Source: a virus (taxonomy: Duplodnaviria; Caudoviricetes). Taken from it: DNA of 27,329 nucleotides. Both the position numbers and the translations under genes were made by a program. Numbering within the stretch: the stretch's first letter is position 1; each line of letters begins with the position of its first letter. The stretch is taken from IMG/VR virus record IMGVR_UViG_3300007778_000028, positions 1 through 27,329 of that record; one strand, 5' to 3'. The notes under the pieces were generated by a model that was given only the letters and a program-made list of their open reading frames with translations, made no database searches and was not told the DNA's origin. This document shows, one piece after another, positions 1 to 15,471 of the stretch.

Positions 1-810
1 CTGCTTAAGCGCTTTTTTCAGCCAAGACTGCTCACCTTTTGAGATCTCGACCATCGCCATGTCATCTGCGCCCCACGAAGAAAGTTTAGGTGCACACACT
101 GCAACCAACTCACCTTTCATCGCATTGGCGCGACGTGTAACATCGCTTGCCACACCGTCCCAGACACCTTTGTCAGCCTTGTGAACACGAATCTCACAGT
201 TATTTTTGGCTTGGAACTTATACAAGACGTCTCTTTGGTAAGATTCGCTAGTCTCTTCAAGCGACTCACCTTCAAACGACCAATCAGACTCCCAGCCGTC
301 CTCTTCGTCACTGTCACCAACGATGTGATCTTCACCGTCAACGACTACTTCAGCCTCGCCGTCCAGATCAAAGTCACCTTCAGTGCCAATATCAACGTAC
401 ACACCGCCTAGATCCGCTGCATCGACTTCAAAATCTGTATCTAAATCGTTGCCGTCATCGCTGTAGTCAAGCATGTCAGGGTCGACGCGACCCATCGCTA
501 CATCAATCGCGATAGCGGTTTCTTCGCCGTCTCCGTCTTCGACCTCTGTCCAGTCGTCACCCGCTGTACCCATCATGGCATTCAGCTTGTCGATACGCTG
601 ATCAATTACGATATCACCATCTATTGACGATTCGCCTAAATCACCCTGATCCGCGTCGTCTTCGACTTCCGTCCAATCTGTAACGGCTGCACCGACTTTA
701 CGGTCATAGTAGTCGTAACGGGCTTCGAGGTCTGGGTGGATCTCCAGCGCATTTTCGCTTTCATCGACGACACGACCGATTTTTGATAGAAGTTTAGTTG
801 CTATAGACAT
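1..810 (-). CDS. Acidic hypothetical protein with N-terminal leader (putative internal head protein), runs off the window edge
   Basis: Not in the ORF track; translated by hand. ATG at 810 with GGAG upstream. Starts MSIATKLLSKIGRVVDE, has a very D/E-rich stretch with DWTEVED twice, and ends at the window edge in ...EQSWLKKALKQ without a stop. Confidence 0.8.
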   Translation of the reverse strand, partial: MSIATKLLSKIGRVVDESENALEIHPDLEARYDYYDRKVGAAVTDWTEVEDDADQGDLGESSIDGDIVIDQRIDKLNAMMGTAGDDWTEVEDGDGEETAIAIDVAMGRVDPDMLDYSDDGNDLDTDFEVDAADLGGVYVDIGTEGDFDLDGEAEVVVDGEDHIVGDSDEEDGWESDWSFEGESLEETSESYQRDVLYKFQAKNNCEIRVHKADKGVWDGVASDVTRRANAMKGELVAVCAPKLSSWGADDMAMVEISKGEQSWLKKALKQ

Positions 811-828
811 TTTCAAGTTGTCTCCAGA

Positions 829-1077
829 TTAAGTTAAATCGAGCGTGTCGAAAATACGACGACTGATTTCGTAAATTTCGCCAGTGTCGCTAGAAATCAT
901 CACACGTGAGGTGAAACCTTCGGGGTTTCCCAGCACACTGTAAGTCCCGTCAGGAAGCGTGGTTGCTTCCCCTGTAACAAAATCAAAGCATGGCAAGACA
1001 AGTCCGTCATCGCCGCCCGTAATTTTGAACGTGGGAATCTTTTTAAGTTTACTGACTACAGAAATTGAAAGACTCAC
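829..1077 (-). CDS. Hypothetical protein
   Basis: 82-aa ORF; its GTG start overlaps the upstream TGA (GTGA coupling); tiles the operon. Confidence 0.65.
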   Translation of the reverse strand: MSLSISVVSKLKKIPTFKITGGDDGLVLPCFDFVTGEATTLPDGTYSVLGNPEGFTSRVMISSDTGEIYEISRRIFDTLDLT

Positions 1078-1310
1078 TCGTCACCTCCGTCATCACCATC
1101 AAGACCGCCTCGATTCGGGCGATACCGTGAGGCAATGTATTTGACAGTCGAATAGCGAAGTTGATCGTCTTGAATATTACCGACAGCTGCAATGGCTTGC
1201 AGGTAGAGACTTCTAAAATCTTTGCTTGTCATTTCTCGGTTCTTCGCCTCAGCGTCACGTAAAATTCGACGTACGGTGCGTGCGAGATCGACATCAGCGC
1301 TTTTAATCAT
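1074..1310 (-). CDS. Hypothetical protein
   Basis: 78-aa ORF with GGAG RBS, tiling between neighbouring genes. Confidence 0.65.
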   Translation of the reverse strand: MIKSADVDLARTVRRILRDAEAKNREMTSKDFRSLYLQAIAAVGNIQDDQLRYSTVKYIASRYRPNRGGLDGDDGGDE

Positions 1311-1324
1311 CTTCCGATCTCCAC

Positions 1325-1957
1325 TTAATAAATAACATGATGCCAGTCTGAGTTATCTTGTAAACGCTCTATTGTCTGTTCGACCAAACTTTGTCCTTCA
1401 CCGACAAGCTGATCCGCGTCCATCGATACCGGCAGGTCGTTCAACGTGAATGCGCGACGTGAGCGTCCAAGGGCAATCAGAAAGTTACCCTGTAACAAGT
1501 CCAAAAACAGCGTTTCCTGACGCACGCCGCTAATCTCAGCGTCAATCAGCACGCCTGTAGTCTCATCCCGTGTCTCAACCGTTGGGTAGGTGTCGTAATG
1601 TGCGGTGATATTGACTGCACCGAGCAAACCTACAACGTCGAGCACGCCGGTCTCGCGATTGTATTCCCAGTAATTCACGCTTGAACTGCCGTGAAAACCT
1701 GACATCAGAATCCCAAAGGGCACGGTTGAGACAGACTGCACCGACGCAGGCTTGTCGTTGGTATCAAACTGGTAGCTGTTCGAGTTAAGCTGCACTTTGT
1801 GTACCGCTGTGCGCGGTTTCCAGCGTGAGTAGTCACGCAGAGTACGCTTTACCAACGCGTAGAACAGTGGCACGTCGATCTGCGTATTCGCTAGATCACC
1901 GACGATGAACTCACCGGAAATCAGCATGATCTCGTTTATCAAGTCAGTCAGTCGCAT
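1325..1957 (-). CDS. Putative neck/head-tail adaptor protein (T4 gp13-like)
   Basis: C-terminal ALGRSRRAF...LPVSMDADQLVGEG...IERL resembles the gp13-type W/LG..R.KF..LP...NG..L..EG..E..L pattern; located downstream of the head genes. Confidence 0.55.
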   Translation of the reverse strand: MRLTDLINEIMLISGEFIVGDLANTQIDVPLFYALVKRTLRDYSRWKPRTAVHKVQLNSNSYQFDTNDKPASVQSVSTVPFGILMSGFHGSSSVNYWEYNRETGVLDVVGLLGAVNITAHYDTYPTVETRDETTGVLIDAEISGVRQETLFLDLLQGNFLIALGRSRRAFTLNDLPVSMDADQLVGEGQSLVEQTIERLQDNSDWHHVIY

Positions 1958-1971
1958 AATGCGCCCCGTGT

Positions 1972-2370
1972 CTATCGTCTGGTTTTACGTTTGATATTTA
2001 GTAAAGAGCGACGACGCGTACTGATCTTGCGTTGACGCTTGGTTGTACCCTTTTTAGCCGTGCGTTTTATCGCGCGATTGCGTCGCGCTTTTTCGCTACC
2101 TTTTAACATGCGATACACGCACTGACGCCGTGGGTCGACCGTCGCAATATACCCCGCACGCTTTGGACACGTGAAGCGCTTAAGCTTTATCTTTTTACCC
2201 TGACGTACAACGAACTTGACCATCTTCTTAGCACGAATTTCGGTGATAACCTCTTCACCTAGATCTGCCTCGTCGAACTCGCTATAGAGCGAGAGTTCGA
2301 CTGTCTCTGCATCATCAGCAAGACGCTCAAGAATTCGTGCAGCTAATGATGTAGTGTTATTTGAAATCAT
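1972..2370 (-). CDS. Prohead core protein-like (T4 gp68-like), acidic N-terminus and very basic C-terminus
   Basis: SLAARILERL leader, acidic stretch ending VITE, then K/R-rich VVRQGKKIK...AGY...RM...EK.RR..RRRSL...RK resembling gp68-type core proteins. Confidence 0.55.
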   Translation of the reverse strand: MISNNTTSLAARILERLADDAETVELSLYSEFDEADLGEEVITEIRAKKMVKFVVRQGKKIKLKRFTCPKRAGYIATVDPRRQCVYRMLKGSEKARRNRAIKRTAKKGTTKRQRKISTRRRSLLNIKRKTRR

Positions 2371-14089: not shown

Positions 14090-14185
14090 TTTTATACCTG
14101 CGTGAATACTAGATAGGCATCTAACGTCGCACGGGGTGAGCACTCCAACGCACCGAGCGGTTTAGATGATTTTCCTAAAAAGAGA

Positions 14186-14261
14186 TGGTGCCCCCAGTAC
14201 GAGTCGAACGCACGACCTACTGATTACAAGTCAGTTGCTCTACCAGCTGAGCTATAGGGGC
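14186..14261 (-). tRNA. trnT: tRNA-Thr (UGU)
   Basis: 76 nt GCCCCTATAGCTCAGCTGGTAGAGCAACTGACTTGTAATCAGTAGGTCGTGCGTTCGACTCGTACTGGGGGCACCA; full cloverleaf, TTCGA T-loop, encoded CCA. Confidence 0.97.
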
Positions 14262-14268
14262 AAAGACG

Positions 14269-14838
14269 TTACAACGCGGGGATCGAGAGGAAACCAACAA
14301 GATTGGCAACCACCTCAGCATTTTCCACACGGTGTCCCCAAGGAAGTGGGGTATAAACAAGATTTTCAGATTCACAATAAGCAATGGTCGAATGCGGATT
14401 AACGACCTCGTCATTCATGCCAACGATGACGTGAATCGGAGCGGCGAGTTCAACTCGACGAATACGATCTAACGGCTCAAATGCAGCACGCATTGTGTCT
14501 GAAATAGGGATATCGGTGTTAGTTGCATAATCCTTCGCGGGTCGATCTCTAAAGATCTCCAGAAACGTTGCAGGATCAAGCACTGGATTTATCGCAAGTG
14601 TTGGCAAACCGAACACTTCAGAAAGCTTCATTGCGTAGAAGCCGCCCATCGACGTACCGACAATGACGGAGGGTTTAACAGAGTTAACAGTATCACAGAG
14701 TTCGCGCATCGAACGCTCGTAGTCATGCGGCGCATAACTTGGCGCATCAACTACAAGATCTAAATCGCGCAACGCAGCTACGGTCGACGAATTTCCACTC
14801 GACCCTAACCCATGCAAATACAACACTCGTTCACTCAT
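14269..14838 (-). CDS. YqiA/YcfP-family alpha/beta hydrolase (esterase)
   Basis: YLHGLGSS, nucleophile elbow GTSMGG, INP, DEVV and GH catalytic-triad motifs. Confidence 0.85.
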   Translation of the reverse strand: MSERVLYLHGLGSSGNSSTVAALRDLDLVVDAPSYAPHDYERSMRELCDTVNSVKPSVIVGTSMGGFYAMKLSEVFGLPTLAINPVLDPATFLEIFRDRPAKDYATNTDIPISDTMRAAFEPLDRIRRVELAAPIHVIVGMNDEVVNPHSTIAYCESENLVYTPLPWGHRVENAEVVANLVGFLSIPAL

Positions 14839-14861
14839 ACGAACTCCCCATCACACTAACC

Positions 14862-14900
14862 ATAATAACTCGCTTGGCTTCATAAGTCAATACGCTGTTC
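14862..14900 (-). promoter_or_regulatory. Sigma70-type (early) promoter for esterase + tRNA
   Basis: GAACAGCGTA-TTGACT-17 bp-TATTAT (-35 at 14885-14890, -10 at 14862-14867). Confidence 0.8.
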
Positions 14901-15471
14901 AGGTTATTGCTTTGTTAGGGGTTCCAAACATCGCCTTACGAATCATATCGCCGCCAATTTCACGGCGGTAGAAATAGTCATCAATCGGCTCAAGCGTATC
15001 ATTTTTCAAAATTTTCTTTGCATCGGAGACTTTGATTCTGTACTTCTTAAGCAGTTTAGGGACACGCTTTTCCAGCCAGCTAAGTAGGTGATGCGAAACT
15101 TCCATATACGAACGCTCGAACTCAGCGCGCATAATGTTTTCAAAATCAACCTTACCCGTTGGCGCATCACGATTCACAGCAACAGCGACGAGCTTACGTC
15201 CAGACTTATCTTTATAGATAATCACACACGTCACAACACCTTCGCGTACCGACAACTTCCAGAACGGCATTGTCTTGACTAACGCCGCTTTGCTTTCAAA
15301 GCCAGAGCCTTTTATGCCGCCCATTTCCTTGTAAGCAGCTTGCAACATATCCCACACCTGATCGACATATTTAAGTCTCGGATCTTGGTCTTTTATAAAT
15401 AAATTGACGTAACGCTCATGGCGCGAAATAGTCGGATTTAACCGCACTAAAATTGACTCAGCTAAGGTCAT
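14899..15471 (-). CDS. Leader-bearing hypothetical protein, possibly GNAT-like fold
   Basis: Starts MTLAESILVRL; VWDMLQAAY...GG followed by a beta-rich segment. The fold call is weak. Confidence 0.7.
   Translation of the reverse strand: MTLAESILVRLNPTISRHERYVNLFIKDQDPRLKYVDQVWDMLQAAYKEMGGIKGSGFESKAALVKTMPFWKLSVREGVVTCVIIYKDKSGRKLVAVAVNRDAPTGKVDFENIMRAEFERSYMEVSHHLLSWLEKRVPKLLKKYRIKVSDAKKILKNDTLEPIDDYFYRREIGGDMIRKAMFGTPNKAIT

Follow-up and report, generated by a model that had tools for sequence, protein, structure and literature searches.

What is the role of a short N-terminal leader shared by otherwise unrelated proteins encoded downstream of a phage capsid gene? This question is raised by a 27.3-kb phage fragment (IMG/VR record IMGVR_UViG_3300007778_000028; 27,329 nucleotides in its entirety, hereafter the window). 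Its genes lie on the minus strand in the order terminase, holin, portal, RuvC, fused protease–scaffold and gp23-like capsid gene, followed by 24 genes up to the contig end, among which the leaders are found. A preliminary description of this DNA had listed 15 leaders and proposed that they constitute an addressing system, coded differently from the capsid-targeting sequences (CTSs) of T4, that loads enzymes and effectors into the head. The comparative results below, together with published virion proteomics, indicate that the leader is very probably a head-loading tag, and add two features to that description: the tag resembles the C-terminal end of the scaffold, and it occurs throughout the clade.

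All 15 leaders are present at the positions first given, on the minus strand, and share the consensus [ST]-[LKR]-A-x-x-h-h (h, hydrophobic), mostly followed by h-x-Glu. A profile of 11 columns was built from these 15 leaders and scored leave-one-out (LOO), with a pass at 6 bits or more; the anchors were placed by eye, hence some residual fitting. The enrichment at N-termini that the preliminary description had proposed to look for was found: 14 of the 15 leaders pass, as against 0 of 23 other N-termini in the window and 2% of 298 internal windows (Mann–Whitney p 6.6e-7). The claim of a common motif holds for all listed leaders except that at 4683 (likely start 4674), which fails at -0.2 bits. 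Pairwise BLASTP among the 14 tagged bodies gave no match at E<0.01, in agreement with the claim that the proteins are unrelated; a short N-terminal peptide on 14 unrelated bodies is a feature that the array shares with the T4 CTSs. The listed proteins, with LOO scores, are as follows.

14899..15471, minus strand: tagged protein of 190 aa, 9.2 bits; weak acetyltransferase-like lead (Atlas feature score 0.92).
13757..14089, minus strand: tagged protein of 110 aa, body without family match, 14.1 bits.
13332..13760, minus strand: tagged protein of 142 aa with a weak ParB/Srx-like domain, 20.0 bits; PF02195 at E 0.003 (below cut-off), PHROG ParB-like at E 0.001.
12560..13303, minus strand: tagged protein of 247 aa, ParBc_2-like phage family, 11.4 bits; Atlas ParBc_2 lead.
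11514..12548, minus strand: tagged RelA/SpoT-type nucleotidyltransferase (small alarmone synthetase-like) of 344 aa, 11.0 bits; PF04607 at E 1.5e-4.
10070..10621, minus strand: tagged protein (LMG/YRP leader) of 183 aa, 11.3 bits.
8717..10066, minus strand: tagged protein (LMG/YRP leader) of 449 aa, unknown body, 15.0 bits.
8106..8657, minus strand: tagged protein (LMG/YRP leader) of 183 aa, 6.4 bits; leader DNA 89% identical over 28 nt to that at 5870.
7312..8061, minus strand: tagged protein (LMG/YRP leader) of 249 aa, 9.2 bits.
5881..6714, minus strand: tagged protein of 277 aa, 6.4 bits.
4680..5870, minus strand: tagged protein (LMG/YRP leader) of 396 aa with six h-x-E-[SA] sites, 15.3 bits.
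4264..4674, minus strand: doubtful member of 136 aa, -0.2 bits; weak LETM1-related match (NF040639, E 1.3e-5, far below cut-off).
2976..3800, minus strand: tagged protein of 274 aa, 9.8 bits; phrog_23027 at E 1e-15.
1972..2370, minus strand: tagged basic protein of 132 aa, pI 11.1, 15.6 bits; tblastn match in the related locus L008.
1..810, minus strand: tagged acidic protein, pI 4.1, truncated by the contig end, 9.3 bits.

Label-blind clustering of the N-termini in the window recovers a clique of the five LMG/YRP leaders (starts at 10621, 10066, 8657, 8061 and 5870) and nothing else, the nine remaining leaders being more diverged than this set. Four of the LMG/YRP leaders are 68–89% identical in DNA across 28–39 nt, suggesting recent duplication of these leaders. 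The graph clustering used here has flaws of its own: it missed the leaders of Carin-5, gave a spurious first cluster in Vibrio phage 150E35-1 and included five doubtful members in contig G001. It replaced a home-made expectation–maximization (EM) motif search, which was dropped as its memberships were inflated and shuffled sequences also scored high; on YerA41 the overfitted EM motif gave 22 of 53 particle-associated proteins (p 0.05). Outside the array, a DUF6171 gene (22695–22916) has a leader-like start ending in LTE, yet scores 0.1 bits.

The preliminary description had also claimed that the leaders usually end in hydrophobic-x-Glu, and an h-x-Glu within residues 6–25 is indeed found in 13 of 14 leaders; among the other genes of the window the figure is 10 of 24, and among the genes called in six genomes it is 382 of 1079 (35%). 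The P3 residue of this motif is frequently V or M. The exception is the leader at 15471, which probably ends at Glu19, a non-canonical Glu located exactly where homologs show h-x-E ahead of the shared body. The gp21-like protease noted at first sight is likewise encoded: its domain aligns to T4 gp21 (E 3e-5), with His, Ser and Asp motifs, which we take to be catalytic, in register. The fused protein carries 24 h-x-E-[SA] sites (3.7 per 100 aa), and several tagged bodies hold extra h-x-E sites. The head genes concerned, including the scaffold-tail sites discussed below, are as follows.

19223..19786, minus strand: clade-conserved gene preceding the protease, with a borderline motif (5.8 bits, the top N-terminus outside the list); tblastn matches in 45 loci.
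17276..19204, minus strand: fused prohead protease–scaffold of 642 aa with a gp21-type N-terminal domain; phrog_207 at E 7.5e-24.
17375..17434, minus strand: two motif-like copies in the scaffold tail (residues 591–598 and 603–610), both within the top three sites of the leader profile in this protein.
17279..17302, minus strand: tag motif repeated at the C-terminus of the scaffold (residues 635–642, SRAAKLMK), which the leader profile places 1 of 38 among protein tails.
15625..17016, minus strand: gp23-like major capsid protein with a helical N-terminal region, the presumed binding partner; PF07068 at E 1.9e-10, model pLDDT 94.5.

If the leader is an address, the same body would be expected to bear other addresses in other phages, and this is observed. 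Homologs of three tagged proteins carry T4-type tags ahead of the same bodies: 45 of 119 homologs of 12560–13303 (among the best 120 of 292), 12 of 23 homologs of the RelA/SpoT-like 11514–12548 and 26 of 61 homologs of 14899–15471, whereas the T4-type pattern occurs in 7 of 1079 genes in a control of six clade genomes including the window phage. A typical start is MKTFKEFLAE, T4 IPII and IPIII starting with MKTYQEFIAE. In the 12560–13303 family, 118 of the same 119 homologs have h-x-E within the first 25 aa, and in all three families the conserved body starts immediately after h-x-E; for 11514–12548, whose family profile matches solved Rel/SAS proteins, it starts after Glu45. The window-type tag is present on few homologs (3 of the 119 of 12560–13303 and 2 of the 23 of 11514–12548). 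The PANV1 and Melnitz homologs of 2976–3800, whose C-terminal domain is common to T4-like phages, both begin with T4-type tags, and the body of 10070–10621 is present without a tag in CBB and PANV1. In the available part of the CBB virion table, which starts at CBB_29, the untagged homolog CBB_11 does not appear, a weak observation. Assignment of homologs to T4-like phages is based on the tag and a few named phages, not on genomic context. Because the same bodies occur with a T4-type tag, a window-type tag or none, the leader is, judging from these homologs, a module separable from the body and subject to exchange, gain or loss.

Other tag dialects, of the MIKLKxLLxE, MKGFLxYITDE and MKxLIEDIRYFME types, are seen on one body (homologs P0026–P0144). 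The start of two RelA-like homologs (P0016 and P0020) resembles, by eye, the C-terminal domain of 2976–3800, which suggests that payload domains could be shuffled as well. T4 IPII (L052 917–1219) has AGKLE after its tag, and most homologs of 12560–13303 show the same word directly behind the tag; it may be a second cut site or a chance likeness.

The source of the window is a myovirus of the RP13/TM30/YerA41 group. For its capsid protein, 32 GenBank phage records give matches at 24–44% identity, the top ones being Ab1-TPeters, RP13, EP_H11/IME392, two Vibrio phages and the group of Rhizobium phage TM30; YerA41 and Cobetia phage Carin-5 lie further away. Similar leaders stand ahead of unrelated genes in RP13, Ab1-TPeters, Vibrio phage 150E35-1, Carin-5, YerA41 and contig G001 (about 14 in the last), and at least 6 bits are reached by 48 of 678 N-termini in another 33 loci, versus 58 of 3854 internal windows. 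RP13 has a second N-terminal cluster of the F-x-x-W-K-x-x-Q-D type (genes at 2235, 6929, 9662, 67553, 108437, 137156 and 162219, one annotated as an HNH endonuclease); these seven are probably a paralog family.

Published virion proteomics of YerA41 (Table S2, PMC7354516) links such leaders to particles. Entries of this table were matched to GenBank genes by order and length. Label-blind clustering of YerA41 N-termini yields one cluster of seven, of the S-R-I-x-x-L-N-x-K-F-E type with unrelated bodies, and in these data all seven are particle-associated versus a base of 63 of 200 (p 2.4e-4). When stratified by expression class, late members are 5 of 5 (base 26 of 51) and middle members 2 of 2 (base 26 of 101), with a product of about 0.002. 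One of the seven is a RimK-like enzyme encoded far from the head genes. With the window profile, the top three ranks in YerA41 are particle proteins. The YerA41 cluster, together with tag swapping, supports the proposed differently coded, protease-trimmed head-loading tag, the leader at 4683 being left out.

To what would such a tag bind? The scaffold offers a clue. The three best sites of the leader profile in the 642-aa protease–scaffold (residues 591–598, 603–610 and 635–642) are all in its last 52 residues. Profiles of eight columns built from each phage's own leaders rank the scaffold tail 1 of 38 in the window, 1 of 72 in G001 and 1 of 282 in RP13, and the window profile places 12 of 15 clade scaffold tails within the top 4% of 1040 tails; the likeness in these phages and the clade set had been noticed by eye before testing. 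In 33 loci fetched later, the scaffold tail comes first in 12 (chance 1.7) and within the top two in 16 (chance 3.5); once 21 short loci are included, 20 of 54 tails lie above the 95th percentile of the null. The kinship of these phages means that such counts are not independent. The scaffold of the later loci was assigned by position as the gene upstream of the capsid gene, 33 of 66 loci being kept for having enough genes after near-duplicates were removed by eye. S-[RL]-x-x-R-L-[ML] is the sole conserved block in 29 aligned tails, which were selected for having the block. With a YerA41 profile of ten columns, a choice made once the first result was known, the scaffold tail of Carin-5 ranks 1 of 232. 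In the subclade L061–L075 the scaffold ends in K-x-x-F-L-E-x-L, and few window-type tags occur near the capsid gene.

On this basis a clip-off tag that docks passengers in the assembling prohead, at the site which the scaffold tail would use, is moderately favored. We infer that one and the same short amphipathic helix is formed by scaffold tail and leaders alike and recognized at a single prohead site, probably on the capsid precursor at its inner face or N-terminal helices, and that the protease would then cut after Glu to free the bodies. Passengers would remain in the head, and some would exit with the DNA; acidic or basic members would be degraded as core. New passengers might be recruited when recombination grafts a leader onto a gene. 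The capsid protein model is confident (pLDDT 94.5), with the P1 and T4 capsids as the closest solved folds, and residues 3–67, the N-terminal region, are modelled as helical in the predicted structure. Complex prediction with two capsid-protein copies and a 38-aa leader alignment gave a score of 0.01, which counts neither for nor against such binding. Scans with a broad capsid alignment gave no usable pattern, and a scan with P0145 was rejected, its matches being mostly to an insertion domain. A wider proposal is offered only tentatively, its odds falling short of even: tags of the T4-superfamily type would be copies of the scaffold's shell-binding terminal helix joined to a protease site, forming a private postcode in each lineage; payload families would be re-addressed between lineages; and the DNA would be accompanied into the host by some dozen proteins, an alarmone-synthetase-like enzyme among them.

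Several observations weigh against docking at the scaffold's site, or against head loading itself. The YerA41 particle list is permissive, with 63 proteins including many replication enzymes, and the window profile on 200 YerA41 genes shows no overall enrichment of particle-associated proteins (p 0.27). Own-leader profiles miss the scaffold tail in YerA41 (180 of 205; with ten columns 149 of 205) and in Vibrio phage 150E35-1 (164 of 211), the tails of T4 gp22 and gp21 do not match the tag, and a test of single tail sequences against N-termini is at chance (1 of 33). The tail score and the share of tagged genes show no covariation (rho -0.09). Also, convergence is possible because the motif is short and amphipathic.

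In the most probable of the rivals, the leader is a head-loading tag that binds the scaffold core, as proposed for T4 CTSs, and not the scaffold's shell site, the tail likeness being due to like helices associating with one another or to convergence. It would explain why YerA41 and Vibrio phage 150E35-1 have tags where the tail does not match and why tail and tag do not covary, and the T4 work places CTS affinity on the core, not the shell (PMC9026906). This rival is nevertheless rather unlikely, in that the window profile picks the scaffold tail far above chance and the tail motif, the only block conserved in the aligned tails, lies at the extreme C-terminus. It is by the extreme C-terminus that P22-type scaffolds bind coat protein. 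Docking at the scaffold's shell site is still preferred.

A second rival regards the tagged proteins mainly as accessory core or filler that is packaged, after which it is digested or remains inside the head, with few or none acting in the host cell. The product of 1–810 is very acidic and that of 1972–2370 very basic, in composition like T4 gp67 and gp68; several bodies hold the extra h-x-E sites; and most have no match in profile and family searches. The tag, however, also stands on intact enzyme-like bodies, namely RelA/SpoT-like in the window, RimK-like in YerA41, a pyrophosphatase in Vibrio phage 150E35-1 and a leucine-rich-repeat (LRR) protein in L007. In addition, tblastn of the 14 bodies against the fetched loci finds matches for 2, whereas neighbouring core genes match 32–59 loci, a pattern more in keeping with host-facing turnover than with a structural role. 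As a general account this rival is improbable. For individual members it has force: 1–810 is likely a core protein, and 1972–2370 is likely to belong to the prohead core, its likeness to gp68 being one of composition only. BLASTP gave no significant alignment of the latter to T4 gp68 and so lends no support to homology; tagged genes similar to it were seen by eye at the same position in RP13, Ab1-TPeters and L010. Because two tagged proteins are core-like by charge, the array is probably a mixture of core components and passengers. The original reading as enzymes and effectors is narrowed to this extent, these two proteins looking more like core that would be degraded. Enzyme-like leads were obtained for three or four bodies only, and these payload leads are weak: a RelA/SpoT-type synthetase, two ParB/Srx-like proteins and a possible acetyltransferase.

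The weakest rival, that the leader is unrelated to the head and acts as a chaperone, membrane or translation signal or is just an amphipathic start of a generic kind, draws on the higher amphipathicity of the leaders (moment 1.71 vs 1.35 for other starts) and on the T4 gp23 N-terminus, which reportedly directs proteins to GroEL, but is very improbable given the replacement by T4-type tags with h-x-E at the same junction, the particle association of all seven YerA41 members, the location of the array among head genes and the restriction of DNA-level repeats to the LMG/YRP leaders.

Untagged genes are interspersed in the array, and three of them, which have their own promoter-like sequences, provide an internal contrast to the tagged genes.

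14269..14890, minus strand: untagged YqiA-like esterase (PF05728, E 2e-12) with a sigma70-like promoter at 14890–14862.
11033..11488, minus strand: untagged gene with a sigma70-like promoter at 11488–11460 (11 of 12 matches).
6794..7289, minus strand: untagged HD phosphohydrolase (phrog_990, E 1e-41) with a sigma70-like promoter at 7289–7262.

The preliminary description had assigned sigma70 promoters to three leaderless genes; the three best sigma70-like matches in the window do lie directly upstream of these genes, although the window total of 17 equals chance (shuffled mean 16.7). The tagged RelA/SpoT-like gene 11514–12548 and the untagged HD hydrolase 6794–7237 with its own promoter co-occur in the window, and such a pair is also present in PANV1 (L173 1773–2522 and 2902–3312), two genes apart, the HD proteins being 52% identical. 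The pair is possibly a virion-borne alarmone synthetase with an early-made neutralizing hydrolase.

The array also includes a tRNA-Thr(TGT) gene (14186–14261) and an untagged gene with an 18-nt tandem repeat coding for APVVEE (3863–4006); the latter has nine h-x-E-[SA] matches in 142 aa, and similar genes lie 3' of the capsid gene in relatives. In the relative L007 (8419–10606) the capsid gene is in two frames (265 and about 200 aa) flanking an inserted 147-aa open reading frame, likely an intron, and L006 has the same layout. The listed runs holding the window DNA are labelled freshwater metagenome and include no RNA run, and two other DNA runs give depth in 30 of 30 bins of 1–19500.

The likeness of the tag to the scaffold tail provides a concrete, testable docking hypothesis for T4-type core localization, and cultured relatives exist in Rhizobium phage TM30 and Cobetia phage Carin-5. 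As an annotation tool, the tag flags hypothetical proteins of a large phage clade as probably virion-borne, and among these one might seek proteins of early host takeover and counter-defence; for protein delivery, the tag would provide a second packaging signal of natural origin. A literature search found no report of a scaffold-derived tag or of the window motif in the journals covered, most subscription journals being outside that coverage. The available parts of the phiM9 and PANV1 papers hold nothing on the tagged proteins of the window, and those of PMC9023294, PMC4621102, PMC9239159 and PMC5259590 add little.

Among known systems, the coat-binding helix of P22-type scaffolds and the cargo-loading peptides of encapsulins are short terminal peptides that dock a protein inside an HK97-fold shell. 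In the window, by contrast, natural passengers bear the motif at their N-terminus with a protease site behind it, and shell binding is putative. In P1, whose capsid is the closest solved fold to that of the window phage, the signal is also N-terminal: 30 N-terminal residues of DarB are reported to suffice to load a reporter, with no consensus among Dar N-termini and no separate scaffold in P1 (PMC9024508), whereas in the window many proteins and the scaffold have one consensus in common. SPN3US/phiKZ head and ejection proteins (A-x-E) resemble those of the window in that there are many internal proteins and a Glu-specific prohead protease; they differ in that propeptides are mostly long, about 80% of SPN3US head proteins are uncut and no shared short tag is described, as far as the available part of the source goes (PMC10052503).

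The T4 system is the closest in operation. Its CTSs (IPI–III, Alt; removed by gp21), like the window leaders, are short N-terminal propeptides on unrelated bodies ending in hydrophobic-x-Glu, both phages have a gp21-type protease and a gp23-type capsid, and T4-like phages carry the same cargo families with a T4-type tag. T4 CTSs are described as propeptides of 10–19 residues, cut after L/I-X-E, that suffice to package reporters and were proposed as a means of recruiting proteins of various kinds (PMC9026906); a 2023 review states that the mechanisms placing proteins in the T4 scaffolding core 'remain mysterious' and that CTSs are absent from other core proteins (PMC9958956). The window leaders fail the T4 consensus (aromatics at positions 4 and 7, as in MKTYQEFIAE). 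For this reason the array, which by its sequence features would work like the T4 CTS system, is a variant of that system, not a member.

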